A DNA stretch of 63,447 bases, filler included, from Anaerolineae bacterium (lineage in GTDB: Bacteria; Chloroflexota; Anaerolineae; B4-G1; DUEL01): the NCBI GenBank assembly GCA_041082215.1. It is 10 parts of 10 records of this genome, joined end to end, with 100 filler letters (N's around TTAATTAATTAA, not from the genome) between each part and the next. Parts side by side here need not be neighbours in the genome. Positions count along the whole stretch, not along the records: positions 53,812 to 59,144 come from JBDOIF010000090.1; 9 more parts are not named here. One strand, written 5' to 3'. Below, in pieces: positions 3,608-59,144 of this stretch; the first letter of the stretch is position 1, and the number at the start of each line of letters is the position of its first letter. Made by a program: the position numbers and the translations under genes. A model generated the notes under the pieces. The model was given only the letters and a program-made list of their open reading frames with translations, made no database searches and was not told the DNA's origin.

Positions 3608-3643
3608 CGCAGGGACGCGGAGAAGCGGAGAAGCGGAGACACT
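3608..3643. repeat. Short 8-mer tandem repeat (GCGGAGAA/GCGGAGAC family)
   Basis: gcagggac-gcggagaa-gcggagaa-gcggagac; related units at 10722-10808 and about 24380-24425. Confidence 0.55.
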
Positions 3644-3659
3644 GTGAGAGGAGGGGAAC

Positions 3660-4880
3660 GTGAAACGGGACCTGGATCGGCTGATGGAGGAGCGGGGGCT
3701 GGACGCGGCTGTGGTGAACGGGCCGACCTACGGCAATCCCAACCTGGTCTATCTGCTCAACGGCGCGGCGGTAAGCCAGGGGATCGTGGTCAAGAAGCGG
3801 GGAGAGGAGCCGGTCTTCCTCCATTCCCCTATCGAGCGGGATGAGGCAAAAGCGACCGGACTGCGGCTGGTCAATATGGCCCGCTACGACTTTGTCTCCA
3901 TCCTCCGGGAGAGGGGGGACCGGCTGGAGGCCACGGTGGAGCTTTACCGCCGGATTTTCGCCGACCTGGAAGTGCGCGGAGAGGTGGGATTCTACGGCAC
4001 CGCCGACCAGGGGCGGGCCTACGTCTTCCTCAAGGCACTGGACGAGGCCCTCCCCGACGTCCACGTGCGCGGCGAGTACGAGCGGGGCCTCTTCGAAGTG
4101 GCCCGGGAGACCAAGGATGGGGCGGAGATCGCCCAGATGCGGGAGGTGGCCCACCTGACCTGTCAGGTAATGCAGGAGACGGTTGAGTTCCTGCGCCGAC
4201 ACCGGGTCCGGGATGAAGTGCTGGTCACCGACGACGGCTCCCCGCTCACCGTCGGGGAGGTCAAACAGCACATCCTGCGCCTCCTGGCCGAACGGCGGCT
4301 GGAGGACCCGGAGGGGGTGATCTTCGCCATCGGACGGGATGCGGGCGTACCCCACAGCAAGGGCCGTCCCGAAGACCCCATCCGCCTGGGCCAGACCATC
4401 GTCTACGACCTGTTCCCGCGCCGGCCCGGCGGCTACTTCTTCGACGTCACCCGCACCTTCTGCCTGGGCTACGCTCCGCCAGAGGTGGAGCGGGTCTACG
4501 AAGACGTAAAGGGGTGCGTCCAGGCGGTGATCGAGGCCGTCGGGGTGGGGGTGGAGGCCCGGCGGCTTCAGCAGGTGGCCTGCGCCTACTTCGAGGAGCG
4601 GGGTCACCCCACCGTCGCCAGCAACTCCCAAACCGAGGAGGGATACGTCCATCTGGTGAGCCACGGGCTGGGGCTGGCCATCCACGAAGAGCCCTCCTTC
4701 TCCGACGTGCCCAACAACACCCAGACCCTCCAGCCTGGCCATGTCTTCACTGTCGAGCCGGGGCTTTATTACCCCGAGCGGGGATATGGGGTCCGCATTG
4801 AGGACGTGATCTGGATTGACGAGGAGGGTAACGTCGTGAATCTGACGGAACTCCCCAGGGAGCTGGTCGTCAAACTGTGA
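3660..4880 (+). CDS. Xaa-Pro aminopeptidase, M24 family
   Basis: Pita-bread metal ligands: DLFP...FDVTRT, HGLG..IHE, TVEPGLY, VRIED; GTG start after GAGGAGG. Confidence 0.9.
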   Translation: MKRDLDRLMEERGLDAAVVNGPTYGNPNLVYLLNGAAVSQGIVVKKRGEEPVFLHSPIERDEAKATGLRLVNMARYDFVSILRERGDRLEATVELYRRIFADLEVRGEVGFYGTADQGRAYVFLKALDEALPDVHVRGEYERGLFEVARETKDGAEIAQMREVAHLTCQVMQETVEFLRRHRVRDEVLVTDDGSPLTVGEVKQHILRLLAERRLEDPEGVIFAIGRDAGVPHSKGRPEDPIRLGQTIVYDLFPRRPGGYFFDVTRTFCLGYAPPEVERVYEDVKGCVQAVIEAVGVGVEARRLQQVACAYFEERGHPTVASNSQTEEGYVHLVSHGLGLAIHEEPSFSDVPNNTQTLQPGHVFTVEPGLYYPERGYGVRIEDVIWIDEEGNVVNLTELPRELVVKL

Positions 4881-53811: not shown

Positions 53812-53860
53812 CCCTCTCCCACAAGCGGGAGAGGGGGAGGGGCAGGGGAGGGGGTGAGGG
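53812..53860. repeat. CCCTCTCCC..GGGAGAGGG..GGGGTGAGGG REP-like repeat at contig end
   Basis: Same style as 24209-24267, 26478-26520 and 59079-59144. Confidence 0.65.
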
Positions 53861-54070
53861 TCACCGCGTCAACGTCAGTTTGAACTCGTCCCCCACCGCC
53901 TCTACCTGCACCTTCAGGCCGGCCCGTTCAGCCGCCCGGCGCACGTTCTCGCGGGAGGTGACGGTATCCACCAGGACCTCAATGGGAAACTGCCCCTCCC
54001 CCATCGCCTGCCGGGTGAGGATGACCGGCTGGGGGCAGGATAGGCCCCGCGCATCCACAACTTTGGCCAT
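53861..54070 (-). CDS. TusA/SirA/YedF-family sulfur(selenium)-carrier protein
   Basis: VDARGLSCPQPV motif, 69 aa; RBS GGAGGT; directly downstream of the YedE gene. Confidence 0.93.
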   Translation of the reverse strand: MAKVVDARGLSCPQPVILTRQAMGEGQFPIEVLVDTVTSRENVRRAAERAGLKVQVEAVGDEFKLTLTR

Positions 54071-54112
54071 CTTTACACCTCCGATAGTGCGCTTGGTAAA
54101 ACCCAGCACGAT

Positions 54113-54139
54113 GTAGCGCAAGATTGAATCTTGCGCTAC
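54113..54139. repeat. Perfect GTAG-type palindrome overlapping the YedE stop codon
   Basis: GTAGCGCAAGATT-g-AATCTTGCGCTAC (13-bp arms). Confidence 0.85.
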
Positions 54140-55251
54140 GACCGCTCGCGCATGGTGAAGCCCAGCACGATGCAGAAGACCAGTCCAATAATGACGGCGG
54201 CCTGTCCGTAGGGACCGGGTCCGCCCACTGTGAGCACGCCCTCGGCCAGTTTGTCGGGGACGCCAGCCAGGGCCCAGTTGTGGGCAAAGCCCGCGCCGAA
54301 GATCATCCCCAGGACGAAGAGGCCGGCGTCGCCGTCCCCCTCACCGGAGAGGAAGAGCTGACGGCCCGGGCAGCCGCCCGCCAGGAGGAAGGCCAGCCCG
54401 GCCAGCGCCATCCCCAGGAAGTTCCAGATGTGGCTGGAATGGGCGACCGGCTGGGCGACGAAGCCCGGATTGAACTGCCCCAGGACCAGATTGGTGATCA
54501 GGGCGACCACGAAGAGCGCGCCGACACCGGTGATGAGGTGAGTATCCCCCATCAGAATGACGTCCCGCCAGGCGCCCATCGTGCAGAAGCGGGTGCGCTG
54601 GGCCAGAAAGCCGATGAGCAGCCCCACACCCAGGGAGATGAGGACAGGGGCATGCTTGGAACCGGGGCCCTCTACGCTGAAGAAGATGGGGCCTTCGGGC
54701 GCGAACTGGGGGCGGAAGAGGAGGAGGAGCAGGAGGCCCAGCATGATGGCGGGCATGATCCAGCCAACGGGGGCCGGTGCCGGGCGGCTGCGGCCCAGGG
54801 AGTAGCCCCGCTTCAGGAAGAAGACGCCCAGGGCAATGCCGGCGACCAGCCCGGCGGTGCCCACCAGGCCGTTCAGGTCACCGCCCGCCAGCCGCAGGAG
54901 CGCCCGCCACGGGCAGCCCAGAAAGACCAGGGCGCCGATCATGGCGAACATCCCCAGCAGGAAGCGGACGATGGGGGCGGAACCGGCGCGGGGCTTGAAC
55001 TCCCGGAAGAGGAGGGCGGCGATGGTGGAGCCGAGGACGAAGGCGATGATCTCCGGGCGGATGTACTGGACGAGGGCTGCCCGATGCAGCCCCAGCGCCC
55101 CGGCGATGTCCCGCTCGAAGCAGGCCACGCAGATGCCCATATTGGTGGGGTTGCCGGCTTTCTGCAGAAGCGGGGCCAGCAGGCCGATGACTGCCCCGGC
55201 CAGGAGGATACCCCAGCGCGAGGCAAAGAAACGGGTGAGACGCTCAGACAT
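54136..55251 (-). CDS. yedE: YedE-family putative selenium transporter (YeeE/YedE superfamily)
   Basis: GNP.NMGICVACF.RDIAGALGLH, QYIRPEI, LVFLGCP.R, AQRTRFC, GGCPGRQL; multiple TMs; RBS AAGGAGG. Confidence 0.9.
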   Translation of the reverse strand: MSERLTRFFASRWGILLAGAVIGLLAPLLQKAGNPTNMGICVACFERDIAGALGLHRAALVQYIRPEIIAFVLGSTIAALLFREFKPRAGSAPIVRFLLGMFAMIGALVFLGCPWRALLRLAGGDLNGLVGTAGLVAGIALGVFFLKRGYSLGRSRPAPAPVGWIMPAIMLGLLLLLLFRPQFAPEGPIFFSVEGPGSKHAPVLISLGVGLLIGFLAQRTRFCTMGAWRDVILMGDTHLITGVGALFVVALITNLVLGQFNPGFVAQPVAHSSHIWNFLGMALAGLAFLLAGGCPGRQLFLSGEGDGDAGLFVLGMIFGAGFAHNWALAGVPDKLAEGVLTVGGPGPYGQAAVIIGLVFCIVLGFTMRERS

Positions 55252-55320
55252 CGTTACGTACCTCCTTATCGTTGGATTTTCCACGCGCCGGGCCGATGCC
55301 CGGACACGGCGTGGGCAACG

Positions 55321-55351
55321 AAAAACCGCCGCCAGCACACGCCGACGGCGG
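55321..55351 (-). terminator. Intrinsic terminator (attenuator 3:4 helix) in the yedE leader
   Basis: Minus strand CCGCCGTCGGC-gtgt-GCTGGCGGCGG-TTTTT, 11 bp with 2 G-U pairs, about 70 nt upstream of the yedE start. Confidence 0.85.
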
Positions 55352-55377
55352 ATGGGAGGTACATGCCCCGCTTCGCT

Positions 55378-55485
55378 TCAGGGCGCGGCCTCACCGCCGC
55401 CCCCCGACGTGTGCCAGACGACCCACGGGCACCGCCCGGTGCCCCAGGCCCCACCTCAGGTGCGGCGGTGGCGCAACCCGAACAT
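55378..55485 (-). CDS. Putative selenocysteine-containing leader peptide (MFGLRHRRT-U-GGAWGTGRCPWVVWHTSGGGGEAAP)
   Basis: RBS AAGGAG 55498-55493, ATG 55485, in-frame TGA at codon 10 (55458-55456), frame stays open to TGA 55380-55378. Confidence 0.65.
55420..55450 (-). promoter_or_regulatory. Bacterial SECIS-like hairpin
   Basis: GGGCACC-GGGC-GGTGCCC (55444-55427) starts exactly 11 nt 3' of the UGA; G-initiated 4-nt apical loop; weaker lower stem ggcct/gggtc. Confidence 0.65.
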
Positions 55486-55542
55486 CGGTCTACTCCTTGC
55501 CTTCGCGGTAATTCGCTCGCTGCAGGTGTGCAACTGATGCTA

Positions 55543-55571
55543 ATTATACTCTAATCTGCATCATTTGACCA
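55543..55571 (-). promoter_or_regulatory. Sigma70 promoter of the leader-yedE-tusA transcript
   Basis: TGGTCA-N17-TATAAT on the minus strand. Confidence 0.65.
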
Positions 55572-55588
55572 GTCCGTGAAGTTCGCAG

Positions 55589-55781
55589 GGGCGTATTTCA
55601 ATTTCGGGGCGAGTGGTCCTCCCGCCCGCCGGTGGATCGCAAATCCCACGAATGGCCCGAATACAGCGAATTAGGAGGGATACCTGCTCCATTCGCGGTA
55701 TTCGTTTCTATTCGCGCCATTCGTGTTTCCCCAGGTCTGGCCCGGGCCAGAGACATCTCGCCCCCAAACCGAAATACACCT
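55589..55781. mobile_element. MITE copy 2 (inverted relative to copy 1)
   Basis: GGGCGTATTTCA ... GAAATACACCT; flanked by direct repeat AGTTCGCAG (55580-55588 and 55783-55791). Confidence 0.88.
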
Positions 55782-55854
55782 GAGTTCGCAGATAGATATC
55801 CCCCTGGCATGTCCGGGGATCGCGAACCCCGCGAGCCAGGCGAATAAGGGCCTA

Positions 55855-56973
55855 TTATTCGCCACCCTTCGGCGTTACCCCTGTTTTGAGGCCGCTGCCG
55901 GTGAGGATCACCACGACCGTTCCACCCAGCTCTCCCTCGGCCCGCAGTCGGGTCAGCGCGGCCACCGCCAGGGCGGAGGTCGGCTCGACGTAGAAGCCCC
56001 GATAGGCCAGCCGGCGCTGTGCGGGCAGAATGTCCACCTCTGGCACCGCCAGGAGCCGACCCCCGCTCCTCCGCACCGCCTCCAGCACCGCCCGGCCCCG
56101 CACAGGTGCGGCGATCCGCACCCCCTCGGCTATCGTCTCCCCCTCCTCGATAGATGCCGGCTCTTCTTTCCCTTTCTCCCAGGCGGTCGCCAGCGGCGCG
56201 CACGGTGCCGCCTGCACGCCGAAGAGACGGGGCAGGTGGGCGATGCACCCTGCTGCCATCAACTCCGCCCATCCCCGCGCCAGCCCCAGAAGCAGGGAGC
56301 CGTGCCCCACCGGCAGGACGATGGCGTCCGGCACGTGGGGAGGAGGGAGCTGCTCGTAAAGCTCGAAGGCCACCGTCTTCATCCCGTGGTGGATCAGGGG
56401 GTGGTAGACATGGCTGGCATACGCCGCCCCACGATACGCTGCCTCCAGTACCGCCCGCGCTGCCTCGGTCCGCGGCCCGGGCACGGGGACCACCTGCGCT
56501 CCGTATGCCGCGATCTGAGCCTGCTTGGCCGGTGAGGCGTGGGCAGGGACGTAGACCGTAGCACGGATGCCCGCCCGGGCGGCATAAGCGGCCAGGCTCG
56601 ACCCCGCGTTGCCCGACGAGTCCTCCACCACCTCCTCCACGCCCGCTGCCGCCAGCGCCGTCATCAATACCGCTGTGCCCCGGTCCTTGAACGAACCGGT
56701 GGGATTGAGGAACTCGCACTTGAAGAGGACCGGCAGCCCCTCCCACTCCGCCGCCACCAGGGGGGTCATCCCCTCCCCCAGCGTGACCGGCGTCGCTCCT
56801 TCTGGCAGCGGGAAGGCGTGTCGGTACCGCCACAGCGTCAGATCGGCCCCTTCTACCCGAGCCGGATCGTAGACGGGCGGCTCTTCGATCTCCAGAACCC
56901 CGCCACAGTCGCACCGGAACCGGATGGGGTCAGGCGGATAGGCCCTTGAACAGCTCGAACAGCTCAGGCGCAC
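55855..56973 (-). CDS. thrC: Threonine synthase-like PLP enzyme
   Basis: N-terminal CxxC..CxC, TLGEGMTPL, NPTGSFKDRG, DSSGNAG, PVGHG, VEPTSA, LTGSGLK. Confidence 0.85.
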   Translation of the reverse strand: MRLSCSSCSRAYPPDPIRFRCDCGGVLEIEEPPVYDPARVEGADLTLWRYRHAFPLPEGATPVTLGEGMTPLVAAEWEGLPVLFKCEFLNPTGSFKDRGTAVLMTALAAAGVEEVVEDSSGNAGSSLAAYAARAGIRATVYVPAHASPAKQAQIAAYGAQVVPVPGPRTEAARAVLEAAYRGAAYASHVYHPLIHHGMKTVAFELYEQLPPPHVPDAIVLPVGHGSLLLGLARGWAELMAAGCIAHLPRLFGVQAAPCAPLATAWEKGKEEPASIEEGETIAEGVRIAAPVRGRAVLEAVRRSGGRLLAVPEVDILPAQRRLAYRGFYVEPTSALAVAALTRLRAEGELGGTVVVILTGSGLKTGVTPKGGE

Positions 56974-57001
56974 TTTCCCTCTCCCCCCGATGATAGGGGA
57001 G

Positions 57002-57030
57002 ATAATACCATCGAACAGGAGAGCAGGCAA
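57002..57030 (-). promoter_or_regulatory. Sigma70 promoter for thrC
   Basis: TTGCCT-N17-TATTAT with extended TGn (minus strand). Confidence 0.6.
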
Positions 57031-57048
57031 CCCGGCTGTCCGGGCAGG

Positions 57049-57861
57049 TCAACCCCGCCGCACCAGCCACACTGCTTCCCCCTTCTGCCCGCGCCCCCGC
57101 TCCAGGTCGGTCATCCATAACTTCAAGGGGCGATCCCCGGACCAGAAGAAGACCTCCGAGCGGAGCCGGTCGAGCGTACGGGCATCCGGCGCGACGAAGA
57201 GGAGGTGCCCCTCCCCGATTGCATGGCAGGCCTCCCAGCGGGCCTCCCGCTCGGCGGGGGGACGGCTCAGGTCCTCCACCTCCACCGGCAGCTCCTTCCC
57301 CTCCAGCCGGAGGATCAGGTCTGGCCGGAAGGCCGTGTTGCCGGAGGCGGAGAGAGGGCCAGACGGGAACACCACCTCGTAGCCGGCCGCGGCAAGGAGG
57401 TCCGCTGCTGCCCGGACCGGCGGCCGTGGGACGAGCGGATGGGGGGACAGGAGAGCTTCGGTCATCTGAAGTCGCTGCCGCAAGCGTTCTGCTTCCGCCT
57501 CCGCCCGTGCTGCCCGCGCCTCGGCGCTCTTCAGGCGGGCCTCCAATTGGCGCAGCCGGGCCTTCAGCTCGGCCGTCCTGGTGGCCGGTTCCTGCTCCTG
57601 GCGGCCGGCCCGTAGTCTGGGGGCCAGGGCTTTCAGCACCATCTGCGCCACCTGGCGGGGTGTGAGAGCGGCCAGTCCGTCGGGGGATTGGCTGCGGAGC
57701 CGGTCTACCTCTTCCGGGCAGACAGCCTCTGCCAGATGTTCCAGCTCCTGTTGCACCTCTCGCGCCCGATCCTCCGCGGCCTTGCGGAGGCGGGCCTGTG
57801 CCTCCAGGAGGGCCTGGAGCTGGCGGAGGGAGAGTTCCTGGGCTTGCTGTTCAGGGTCCAT
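57049..57861 (-). CDS. Coiled-coil protein with C-terminal PD-(D/E)xK-like domain
   Basis: Heptad-rich N-terminal half; FRPDLIL...LPVEVE motif near the C-terminus. Confidence 0.6.
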   Translation of the reverse strand: MDPEQQAQELSLRQLQALLEAQARLRKAAEDRAREVQQELEHLAEAVCPEEVDRLRSQSPDGLAALTPRQVAQMVLKALAPRLRAGRQEQEPATRTAELKARLRQLEARLKSAEARAARAEAEAERLRQRLQMTEALLSPHPLVPRPPVRAAADLLAAAGYEVVFPSGPLSASGNTAFRPDLILRLEGKELPVEVEDLSRPPAEREARWEACHAIGEGHLLFVAPDARTLDRLRSEVFFWSGDRPLKLWMTDLERGRGQKGEAVWLVRRG

Positions 57862-58387
57862 TCAGCCAGACGCTTCTTTCTACCGTGACTCGCAGCCCTC
57901 GCGCCCGCCGCAGTACCTCCAGCGCGGCGCGGCGGTTTTCTGGCTCCGGTGCGCCTACCCATTGAGCGGCGGCCAGGACTGCCTGATGGTGGGCTTCGGC
58001 GGCGGCCCGGATCTGTTCGGCGAATCCCGTCAGGGCAGGAGGGGGGGTAGAGAAAGCGGCTTCGCGATGGATTGCGATGGCCCGATCTATCAACCCCTCG
58101 ACCTCGTGAACCAGCCCGTAGAGCCGGACCGGATCGGCCCCTCCATCCACGCTCAGCAGAGCAGTGAGGTCCCTATCCACCCTTTCCATCTCCCTCATCC
58201 ATCGGAGCACCATCTGGCGGTATTTTTCTGCTGCATATACGGAGGGGGAGAGGAGCAGAGGACGGCCTGCTCCGTCGCGGGGAGTCAGACGGGCGCCGAG
58301 GAGGTAGCAGAGAGCGAGGGCGGCCCATACGGTTGCCGTCCAGGCCACTACCCGCAGGAAGCGGCGGGAGAGCCGCAGCCGGATCAA
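57851..58387 (-). CDS. Hypothetical protein with N-terminal TM anchor and helical domain
   Basis: Hydrophobic segment followed by TP....GRP.LLSP; overlaps both neighbours. Confidence 0.6.
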   Translation of the reverse strand: MIRLRLSRRFLRVVAWTATVWAALALCYLLGARLTPRDGAGRPLLLSPSVYAAEKYRQMVLRWMREMERVDRDLTALLSVDGGADPVRLYGLVHEVEGLIDRAIAIHREAAFSTPPPALTGFAEQIRAAAEAHHQAVLAAAQWVGAPEPENRRAALEVLRRARGLRVTVERSVWLNGP

Positions 58388-58761
58388 GCCACCGCCTCCA
58401 CAGGAGGGAGTTCTCCCTCAGAAAGGAGTCGGGCGCGGGCTGCTTCCCCCCGCTCCCAGTCAATCTTGTCAATGAAGACGATGTGATCGGCCACGAACTC
58501 ATGGACCGTCTCGTCGTTATCATGCCGTTTCCGCTGGCGGTAGCGGGCCTGGACCATGATCTTGGAGCCGACGCGGAGGTAAGGGTAGCTCAACAGGGCG
58601 ACATCGCCATAGGCGACAACCCGCACGTAGGAGGCATGGTCCTTTCCATCGTCCACGGCCAGGTAAAGACGCAGGAAGGGGAGGTTGGAGGTACCGATCC
58701 GCTGGAAGTGAGGCGGGTGAGTGATGTTGCCAATGAAGCGACAGTCGTTATTCCAGGTCAT
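58384..58761 (-). CDS. ssb: Single-stranded DNA-binding protein (short, no acidic tail)
   Basis: N...FIGNIT..P, LAVD, VVAYG..A......L..GS.I.V.AR...R, EFVA..I.F; RBS GGAGG. Confidence 0.85.
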   Translation of the reverse strand: MTWNNDCRFIGNITHPPHFQRIGTSNLPFLRLYLAVDDGKDHASYVRVVAYGDVALLSYPYLRVGSKIMVQARYRQRKRHDNDETVHEFVADHIVFIDKIDWERGEAARARLLSEGELPPVEAVA

Positions 58762-58992
58762 TGCCCGCCTCCTGGGAAGAGGGTCCATTGGTTGGGTGTG
58801 TTGTGAGCATCGTTGGCCTCCTTGAGGTGTGTTTGGGCTGAAGTCCTGCGCCCGAGACGGGCACAGGGCAGGCAGAGGAAGGGAACTCCCCGATGGGGGC
58901 AGGGAAAAGCGCGGGGCCAATGCCCCGGTGGGCATTGAGCTGAGGTCTCATCGGACAGCTGCGATGAAAACAACAATGGTTTCTGGTGGGAA

Positions 58993-59020
58993 ATTATAGT
59001 GGGCTTTGGCAAAGTGTCAA
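58993..59020 (-). promoter_or_regulatory. Consensus sigma70 promoter for the ssb operon
   Basis: TTGACA-N16-TATAAT on the minus strand. Confidence 0.75.
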
Positions 59021-59029
59021 GTCCTTGTT

Positions 59030-59144
59030 CTGAGGTTCGGACGCGGGTTCGGACACAGGCACTCATCGGCTGCTTCTGACCTCACCCCATTCCCCTCACC
59101 CTACCCCCAGGCCCCCACCCCACACCCCCGCGGCGGGCGAGGGG
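59030..59144. repeat. Terminus of the repeated element also seen at 24209-24299
   Basis: CTGAGGTTCGGAC....GTT.GGACAC ... CCTCACCCCA. Confidence 0.65.

Follow-up and report, generated by a model that had tools for sequence, protein, structure and literature searches.

A candidate attenuator with a selenocysteine control codon in the leader of a selenium transporter operon from Anaerolineae

Introduction

Bacterial selenium sensing is largely an open question, and the locus described here raises it in a concrete form: can a stop codon recoded as selenocysteine (Sec) act as the control codon of a leader peptide? The locus lies in a 63,447-nt stretch of DNA (the window) from an Anaerolineae bacterium (GenBank assembly GCA_041082215.1), composed of contigs that are joined by runs of N and are unlinked across these runs. 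The contig in question is 5.3 kb long (JBDOIF010000090.1; window positions 53812-59144) and carries yedE, the gene for a putative selenium transporter, preceded by a short open reading frame (ORF) that contains an in-frame UGA followed by a hairpin resembling a Sec insertion sequence (SECIS). The sequence-only reading of the window had suggested that this ORF senses the availability of Sec-tRNA and SelB and thereby regulates selenium uptake. Judging from its sequence and that of its relatives, the most fitting description of the leader is an attenuator of the trp style that depends on a recoded stop codon. Specifically, we assign a probability of roughly 0.7 to the reading that it is a ribosome-mediated (leader-peptide) transcription attenuator, in which the control codon is a Sec UGA equipped with its own SECIS hairpin, failed decoding switches expression on and read-through switches it off.

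Results and discussion

Layout of the leader

All leader elements are located on the minus strand. The promoter, ribosome-binding site, ATG, UGA, hairpin and open frame recognized in the sequence-only reading were all recovered in their places when the sequence was re-read, and further analysis extended the layout as follows.

55543-55571, minus strand: promoter-like site TGGTCA-17-TATAAT (-35 TGGTCA, -10 TATAAT; 10/12 matches in the scan)
55493-55498, minus strand: Shine-Dalgarno sequence AAGGAG of the leader ORF, read from the sequence
55459-55485, minus strand: part 1 of the leader ORF, ATG (55485-55483) and 8 codons, MFGLRHRRT
55456-55458, minus strand: in-frame UGA, the proposed Sec and control codon, invariant in 30/30 leaders
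55427-55444, minus strand: SECIS-like hairpin GGGCACC-GGGC-GGUGCCC, beginning 11 nt past the UGA
55381-55455, minus strand: read-through part of the leader ORF, 25 codons, GGAWGTGRCPWVVWHTSGGGGEAAP, translated only if the UGA is decoded
55378-55380, minus strand: second stop, UGA, closing the read-through frame
55396-55421, minus strand: 5' strand of the putative antiterminator, including the G-rich block A (55403-55396); pairs with 55352-55326, that is, the whole terminator
55382-55403, minus strand: hairpin P2, in which block A (55403-55396) pairs alternatively with block B (55389-55382); reaches as far as the second stop
55355-55364, minus strand: candidate anti-Shine-Dalgarno sequence AUGUACCUCC, predicted in the minimum-free-energy fold to pair with the yedE ribosome-binding region (55265-55256)
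55321-55351, minus strand: intrinsic terminator (hairpin 55351-55326) with an 11-bp stem, GUGU loop and UUUUU, identified by scan and covariation

The short ORF with its own ribosome-binding site sits between the promoter-like site and the structural gene, and its hairpin, the lower stem of which prolongs to about 55450/55421, is found ~175 nt 5' of the yedE start. The 3-kb region scanned contains four promoter-like sites, compared with 0.3 expected from shuffles, and at the aligned place the relatives have TTGCG..-17-TATACT. The terminator scan by itself does not rise above shuffled sequences (1 found versus 1.9 expected).

The bare motif, defined as TGA, 9-14 nt, a G+C-rich stem of at least 6 bp and an early G in the loop, has 1147 occurrences in this G+C-rich genome (3.53 Mb, both strands) and is therefore not significant. 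What raises the leader above chance is its conservation, namely, the invariant UGA, the compensatory changes in the hairpin and the single strong genome-wide match to R1, a covariance model built on the 111-nt leader core. This match falls at the leader itself (E 4.9e-18), and the only other one in the genome (E about 1) lies within a coding-looking stretch. When Rfam 15 was searched at a permissive E-value, no match overlapped positions 55320-55540; the 11 weak matches in the 3-kb region are all elsewhere and far below the gathering scores.

Conservation of the leader ORF

Of 145 genomes in the order, 40 yielded yedE orthologues, the best 30 loci of which were analysed in an alignment of 412 columns (A3). 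Given that these loci are kin, neither the shuffle statistics nor the frame counts represent clean probabilities. The UGA, the hairpin, the second stop and the terminator are kept in all 30 loci, as is the in-frame start (ATG in 22, GTG in 7 and TTG in 1), and a Shine-Dalgarno-like motif precedes the start in 29. There are 6-9 codons before the UGA in the relatives, ending in [YH]-R-R-T, and the 7-bp stem begins 10-13 nt past the UGA, with 11 nt in most loci, so that the start-UGA-spacer-hairpin arrangement, the conservation of which upstream of yedE had been left to be checked, recurs throughout the orthologous set. The UGA is also present in all 23 further (non-yedE) leaders that we aligned. 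Two metagenome-assembled genome (MAG) contigs from Anaerolineae/Chloroflexota, L057 and L077, carry ~205 nt before yedE two in-frame TGAs that are six nt apart (..HHR-TGA-ATT-TGA), with the hairpin beginning 11 nt past the second TGA.

The second stop is found at the aligned place in 30/30 loci, as TGA in 27 and TAA in 3, and 18 of the 23 further leaders end there as well. The leaders measure 111, 114, 126, 129 or 150 nt, each length being divisible by 3, which L040 and the L033 group attain by a series of small indels that offset one another. In the interval between the stops, all 30 loci keep frame 0 open, compared with 15/30 and 14/30 for the other two frames, and none of the 40 stop trinucleotides in this interval is in frame 0. 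Collectively, the open frame, the lack of in-frame stops, the frame-preserving lengths and the exchange between TGA and TAA argue for selection on translation beyond the UGA; ribosomes are accordingly expected to pass this codon. By contrast, the variability at the three codon positions after the UGA (0.79, 0.81 and 0.81) has no periodicity, suggesting that it is the act of translating, rather than the peptide product, that matters. Before the UGA, the corresponding values are 0.46, 0.51 and 0.72, with the third position being the most variable, and the few residues encoded there may be constrained as peptide, as RNA or as both.

The SECIS-like hairpin and the Sec machinery

The leader hairpin is paired in 97.2% of cells over the 30 loci, with AU, GU and UA replacements that represent compensatory changes; most relatives have GGUU as the loop sequence, and the window has GGGC. 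Selenoprotein genes of the genome itself were sought by family searches that report in-frame stops, yielding three formate dehydrogenase (FDH)-like genes, each with one in-frame TGA. The FDH SECIS elements (UGA, 11 nt, GGUGGCC-GGUCU-GGCC(G/C)CC) have the same spacing, the same 7-bp stem length and a loop likewise starting with GG, a comparison that the sequence-only reading had proposed. The pattern of TGA and hairpin was also tried genome-wide as a selenoprotein gene finder and dropped, with 406 of its 1147 sites falling in long frames.

The Sec machinery on which decoding of the UGA would depend is present: selA, selB and selD were found in the genome, all above curated cut-offs, and tRNA-SeC was detected by ARAGORN. 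The selD gene itself has an in-frame TGA at the usual CAG-U-AGK site. Across the order, selB is encoded in 38 of the 40 yedE-bearing genomes and in 52 of the 55 leader-bearing ones, the exceptions being MAGs that are 81-93% complete. Matches to R1 in the order number 60, in 55/145 genomes. Counted by family, leaders occur in 22/25 genomes as well as the window's genome, 32/48 and 0/71, mirroring the distribution of selB (22/25, 45/48 and 0/71), with the third family having neither.

Two alternative folds of the leader RNA

The terminator, followed by a U-run, is paired in 95.7% of cells over the 30 loci, with three pairs changed on both sides, and P2 in 92.9%, with one pair being CG in 14 and UA in 11 sequences. 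Terminator and P2 together constitute one state of the RNA (state T). In the other state (AT), 55421-55396 is paired with 55352-55326, so that the 5' strand of the antiterminator is wholly contained in the read-through part of the leader ORF, and the 3' strand takes in the terminator as a whole, loop included. Of the 24 antiterminator pairs in the window, 21 are standard, and the three antiterminator helices are 81%, 84% and 93% paired over the 30 loci. The covariation score of the antiterminator and hairpin is 0.177, compared with 0.06-0.12 for slid controls, and was reached in 0/500 shuffles. The covarying antiterminator columns are 95/262 (AU/CG) and 165/247. A column in the terminator loop and one in the leader ORF vary together (AU in 13 and CG in 10 sequences), and given that a terminator loop has no other reason to covary with a distant upstream base, the two most likely pair. 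The terminator and antiterminator are mutually exclusive structures, both supported by covariation. This result supports the attenuator idea of the sequence-only reading directly at the level of structure, the read-through ORF providing one strand (5') of an antiterminator in covariation with the terminator.

Similar features extend to more divergent leaders from named MAGs, 24/29 of which have a terminator. In these 24, the duplex between the ORF downstream of the hairpin and the 5' arm of the terminator is stronger than in shuffled sequences (median z -2.08; 14/24 below -1.64 and 2/24 positive). A third pairing is plausible on comparative grounds: segment 1 (55477-55464), consisting of the C-rich codons before the UGA, can pair with block A (75.7% of cells), with a well-paired core of mostly invariant or wobble pairs and a register that varies between families. 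A further helix, B:B', appeared in minimum-free-energy folds of the window's own family and was dropped, being paired in 35% of cells across the order. In that family, the CCUCC block matching the anti-Shine-Dalgarno sequence is conserved, and folding predicts that this sequence closes the yedE ribosome-binding site in state T.

Ribosome position and proposed mechanism

To relate the two states to translation, the ribosome was simulated as a 30-nt mask and the pairing probability of the terminator computed over 29 loci. Without a ribosome, the median probability is 0.85; it falls to 0.18 when the A site occupies the UGA, is 0.90 once the ribosome has advanced 30-60 nt beyond this codon and is 0.84 at the second stop, where the mean is intermediate (0.66). 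In 17/29 loci, the probability rises from <0.5 at the UGA to about 0.9 downstream. As long as the 3' arm of the terminator has yet to be transcribed, block A is the main predicted partner of the 5' arm.

From these patterns, we infer that SelB binds the hairpin, that Sec is inserted and that ribosomes dwell at the UGA, together with a polarity of the switch and a response to selenium, as follows. Transcription would start ~50 nt before the 35-codon leader ORF, and a ribosome would translate 9 codons and meet the UGA. With Sec available, SelB-GTP-Sec-tRNA(Sec) would bind the hairpin, Sec would be inserted and the ribosome would continue for 25 codons, unwinding and covering the antiterminator strand (55421-55396), whereupon the terminator (55351-55326) would fold and transcription would stop before yedE; in the window's own family, the freed anti-Shine-Dalgarno sequence would additionally shut the yedE ribosome-binding site. 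When Sec-tRNA is scarce, the ribosome would wait or terminate at the UGA, masking the C-rich codons that would otherwise hold block A, and the free antiterminator strand would pair with the terminator, allowing RNA polymerase to continue into yedE-tusA. Low selenium status would thus turn selenium uptake on, and the cassette would act as a cis-element of the selenium regulon. This polarity would be homeostatic for an importer and fits the observation, made in a study on Methanococcus maripaludis, that yedE mRNA increases by 5.3 log2-fold on selenium starvation (PMC11097638).

Transcript data for the locus come from one RNA library, X9, in which a contig identical to the window (55237-55406) spans the terminator into the yedE start and a second identical contig lies inside yedE; libraries X12 and X15 contain relatives at 90-95% identity. 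Stretches without cover in these RNA runs carry no meaning. The bridging contig is compatible with read-through transcripts. Because the X9 contigs give neither ends nor levels, they are not counted as evidence of attenuation.

Weighing of the alternatives

Several observations weigh against the attenuator with failed decoding as the on state. The sequences being related, the shuffle statistics overstate significance. In 12/29 loci, the equilibrium folds predict the terminator at every ribosome position. P2 competes with the antiterminator even when no ribosome has moved past the UGA, and the winning of the antiterminator under these conditions is unexplained; if release by RF2 at the UGA is quick, the stalled state would be short-lived. 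Five of the 23 further leaders end a few codons earlier than usual, with a TGA in the P2 region, the frame still crossing block A, and 5 of the 29 divergent leaders have no terminator in a simple scan. The loop of the window's hairpin is GGGC, as opposed to GGU in the genome's own FDH elements; the apical loop of bacterial SECIS elements needs a GU, and the loop in the window is devoid of U. X9, which provides the only transcript evidence, consists of two low-depth contigs from which ends and levels are unreadable and which could stem from DNA carry-over. Finally, a ribosome at the second stop leaves block A just outside its 30-nt footprint in this order, which gives room to a switch with the same parts and the opposite polarity.

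In such a switch, Sec insertion would bring the ribosome to the second stop, where it would be slowed at Pro-UGA and cover block B and the P2 loop, leaving A free to pair with the 5' arm of the terminator (on), and failure of decoding would result in P2 and terminator (off). A proline before a stop codon slows peptide release, and in 26/30 loci a Pro codon precedes the second stop (CCC-UGA; window 55383-55378). Furthermore, P2 covaries and hence forms in some state, block A ends 16 nt before the stop in this order, just beyond the footprint, and the terminator probability with the mask at the second stop is intermediate, as given above. However, formation of the antiterminator would then have to span a ribosome sitting on the RNA, and in several divergent leaders (L066, L068, L073, L106 and L111), only a few nt separate the antiterminator strand from the stop, which places it within the footprint. 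The CCC-UGA belongs to the P2 stem, such that Pro may reflect a constraint on the RNA, and the peptide and RNA constraints are inseparable. Expression at plentiful Sec would also not be homeostatic for an importer and selD, and the response of M. maripaludis yedE to starvation goes the other way (PMC11097638). On these grounds, we regard the opposite polarity as unlikely, although it is the alternative that we take most seriously.

A different view of the same ORF is that it is a genuine gene for a 35-residue selenoprotein, for example, a selenium carrier, with its own terminator, and that yedE is merely co-located or receives basal read-through. The ORF with its UGA and SECIS-like hairpin is indeed conserved, and the five codons before the UGA bear some sign of selection at the peptide level, with a third-position variability of 0.72 versus about 0.5 and synonymous changes among CGC/CGT/CGA and ACC/ACG/ACT. 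After the UGA, however, codon periodicity is absent and the conserved residues coincide with RNA stems; covariation links the ORF sequence to the terminator, loop included; the cassette lies directly 5' of several different selenium operons; and the promoter scan found no promoter-like site between the terminator and yedE. These features make a selenoprotein gene improbable. Slightly more improbable still is a translation-independent, protein-binding RNA switch, in which SelB, with or without Sec-tRNA, would bind and stabilize the hairpin, as on the Escherichia coli selAB leader, and its lower stem, tipping the fold towards the terminator. The likeness of the hairpin to the genome's own SECIS elements and the position of the 3' strand of the lower stem (columns 80-88), which abuts or overlaps the antiterminator (columns 86-98), are in keeping with such binding, and a precedent for SECIS-like regulation was reportedly described by Thanbichler and Bock in 2002. 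Yet, protein binding fails to account for the conserved Shine-Dalgarno sequence, start codon and second stop, for a UGA that is in frame, invariant and fixed in its spacing, for the absence of stops in frame 0 and for the frame-preserving indels.

Genes downstream of the leader and the selenium regulon

The leader of the window is followed by two genes, after which the contig ends.

54136-55251, minus strand: yedE, YedE-family putative selenium transporter, 371 aa (TIGR04112, 487 bits, cut-off 200)
53861-54070, minus strand: TusA-domain protein, 69 aa (PF01206, 51 bits, cut-off 28.6); the contig ends 49 nt on

The assignment of yedE as a putative selenium transporter gene, already made in the sequence-only reading, is well supported by the TIGR04112 score. 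A small correction concerns the TusA/YedF-like carrier: the downstream protein consists of a TusA domain only and scores 49 bits against the YedF model TIGR03527, below its cut-off of 110.

New in the present analysis are copies of the leader at other selenium operons, which widen the interest beyond a single locus. About 20 of the R1 matches in the order are not at yedE; 18 such loci were retrieved, one of which was too short, leaving 17 usable, in addition to 3 earlier ones. In 16 of the 17 usable loci, selD, yedF or a gene for a TIGR01977 cysteine-desulfurase-family protein is located directly downstream of the leader. The identity of selD was confirmed by TIGR00476 in 9 scanned loci, full-length YedF (TIGR03527) is among the downstream gene products, and the TIGR01977 protein scores 365-398 bits on the model of the selenocysteine lyase SclA, below the cut-off of 525. 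Two further cases were found: a 100%-complete relative that lacks yedE has the leader in front of an operon comprising selD(Sec), the desulfurase and a double-cubane-cluster reductase, and in another genome, a second leader copy heads the double-cubane reductase and an acyl-CoA-dehydratase-activase-like ATPase. The reductase is found under the leader in L141 (G052:C1), L140 (G050:C185) and L142 (G053:C125), with NF040772 scores of 462-472 bits. The sequence context of this reductase suggests an unrecognized role in selenium metabolism.

In the remaining locus of the 17, L155 (G044:C142), the leader is followed by an unassigned 375-aa ORF, an ATP-binding cassette (ABC) transporter substrate-binding protein (phnS2-like, 186 bits, below cut-off) and a permease, which by virtue of this position constitute a possible further selenium-controlled transporter. 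Locus L139 (G332:C76) contains two leaders 2.7 kb apart (locus positions 879-1037 and 3633-3768). The second of these heads yedE-tusA-desulfurase, and the first precedes an MntA-type antitoxin gene and a 3-deoxy-D-arabino-heptulosonate 7-phosphate (DAHP) synthase gene, as if it had been parted from its operon by a toxin-antitoxin module or a rearrangement. In the window's genome, the selD gene lies on a contig that ends ~70 nt upstream (G000:C139:21849-21939); a repeated leader copy could be the cause of this assembly break.

In a class-level sample, R1 matched in 19/151 genomes, and over 151 genomes sampled from the phylum it retrieved only the window and one false match inside an acetolactate-synthase-like gene. 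R1 as built does not reach far past the class. Among 80 named yedE loci, the layout of upstream ORF, UGA and hairpin was recognized in 39 by strict rules (one of them doubtful) and in ~43 by R1. The carriers include the cultured Ornatilinea apprima P3M-1 (L118), in which the terminator is present as well, and MAGs labelled Chloroflexia, Syntrophorhabdaceae, Fermentibacteria, Spirochaetales and Bacteroidia, although the labels of MAGs may be wrong; script scans found no such leader in the proteobacterial loci within this set. Overall, we consider it reasonably probable that this family of Sec-recoding leader ORFs forms the cis-regulatory backbone of the selenium regulon across Anaerolineae, as well as in some MAGs labelled as other phyla, covering yedE, yedF/tusA, selD, the SclA-like desulfurase, the double-cubane reductase plus activase and perhaps an ABC transporter, and that it represents the first attenuator to read the charge of tRNA(Sec) via SelB/SECIS stop recoding and the first known RNA-level bacterial selenium sensor.

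Relationship to known regulatory systems

The closest family resemblance is to the attenuators of the trp, his, leu, thr and ilv operons. In both, the 5' leader contains a short ORF with a Shine-Dalgarno sequence and with a control codon the decoding of which would hinge on a single charged tRNA. The structural genes follow an intrinsic terminator, and the mutually exclusive antiterminator overlaps the leader ORF. C-rich sequence just ahead of the control codon is able to sequester the antiterminator strand, comparable to the segment 1:2 pairing, and the regulated genes supply the sensed amino acid. Unlike in the trp-type attenuators, control here would be exerted by a single recoded stop that requires a cis-acting SECIS and a dedicated elongation factor, not by tandem sense codons; failure could mean release instead of a stall, trace-element status would be sensed and an anti-Shine-Dalgarno sequence is added. 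A run of codons for the sensed amino acid is absent from the leader, which has one UGA only (two in L057 and L077), and, having this single UGA instead of a codon run, the leader would be a variant of the leader-peptide attenuator rather than a plain member of the class.

The decoding signal itself is akin to that of fdhF-type SECIS elements, with an in-frame UGA, a spacer of ~11 nt, a 7-bp G+C-rich stem and a loop starting with G, but it is embedded in a 35-codon ORF without sign of a selected product, and the sequence past the hairpin doubles as an antiterminator strand. Escherichia coli selAB has a SECIS-like element in its 5'-untranslated region (5'-UTR) through which SelB mediates translational repression. 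As would be the case here, a SECIS-type hairpin in the leader thereby reports the Sec-tRNA/SelB status to selenium-pathway genes; however, selAB has no leader ORF with a UGA, no terminator/antiterminator pair and no read-through frame, whereas the hairpin described here lies inside a Shine-Dalgarno-led ORF. Conversely, the leader does not have the untranslated character, the proximity of the hairpin to the regulated start or the lack of a UGA-bearing ORF that define the selAB type.

In leaders of the TnaC type, ribosomes stall at a stop codon after Pro, and the tna operon makes use of Rho and of free tryptophan in the exit tunnel. A regulatory short ORF, events at a UGA stop that decide on downstream transcription and Pro before the (second) stop are common to TnaC and the candidate attenuator, the latter differing in its intrinsic terminator and SECIS. 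The nearest precedent is fdhF(Sec) of Treponema primitia, where selenium controls transcription via translational coupling at the Sec codon, and the authors liken this control to attenuation (PMC3892789). In both cases, an undecoded Sec UGA would alter downstream transcription, but the T. primitia UGA lies inside an enzyme gene, and low selenium lowers the downstream transcript by polarity (PMC3892789). The Anaerolineae system, by contrast, has a dedicated leader with a putative antiterminator, and low selenium most likely raises expression.

The sequence-only reading had presented the arrangement as one without a described example, and in the full-text literature that we searched, which largely excludes subscription journals, no description of a Sec-codon leader or attenuator was found. 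The consulted passages of a 2026 review of prokaryotic selenoproteomes mention neither leader nor attenuation (PMC13188914), and in those of a comparative-genomics study of YedE from 2015, a LysR-type candidate is the only selenium regulator named (PMC5322559). According to the M. maripaludis study, no selenium-specific transporter is known in any organism (PMC11097638).

If the proposed mechanism is true, it would be a direct one, gauging Sec-tRNA(Sec)/SelB activity and adjusting uptake (yedE), activation (selD) and trafficking (yedF/tusA and desulfurase) of selenium. It would also make stop-codon recoding a regulatory signal, beyond its being a coding device. The leader further provides genomic evidence for grouping YedE, YedF, the TIGR01977 desulfurase and the double-cubane reductase as one putatively selenium-controlled set and, at ~250 nt, could serve as a compact selenium-responsive part for reporters.

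Upstream gene

Directly upstream of the leader promoter is a gene for a threonine-synthase-like pyridoxal phosphate (PLP) enzyme (55855-57030, minus strand), with no link to the leader seen at this locus. The G+C-rich spacer between this gene and the leader promoter (55572-55854) measures ~280 nt, and the upstream genes of the relatives differ.

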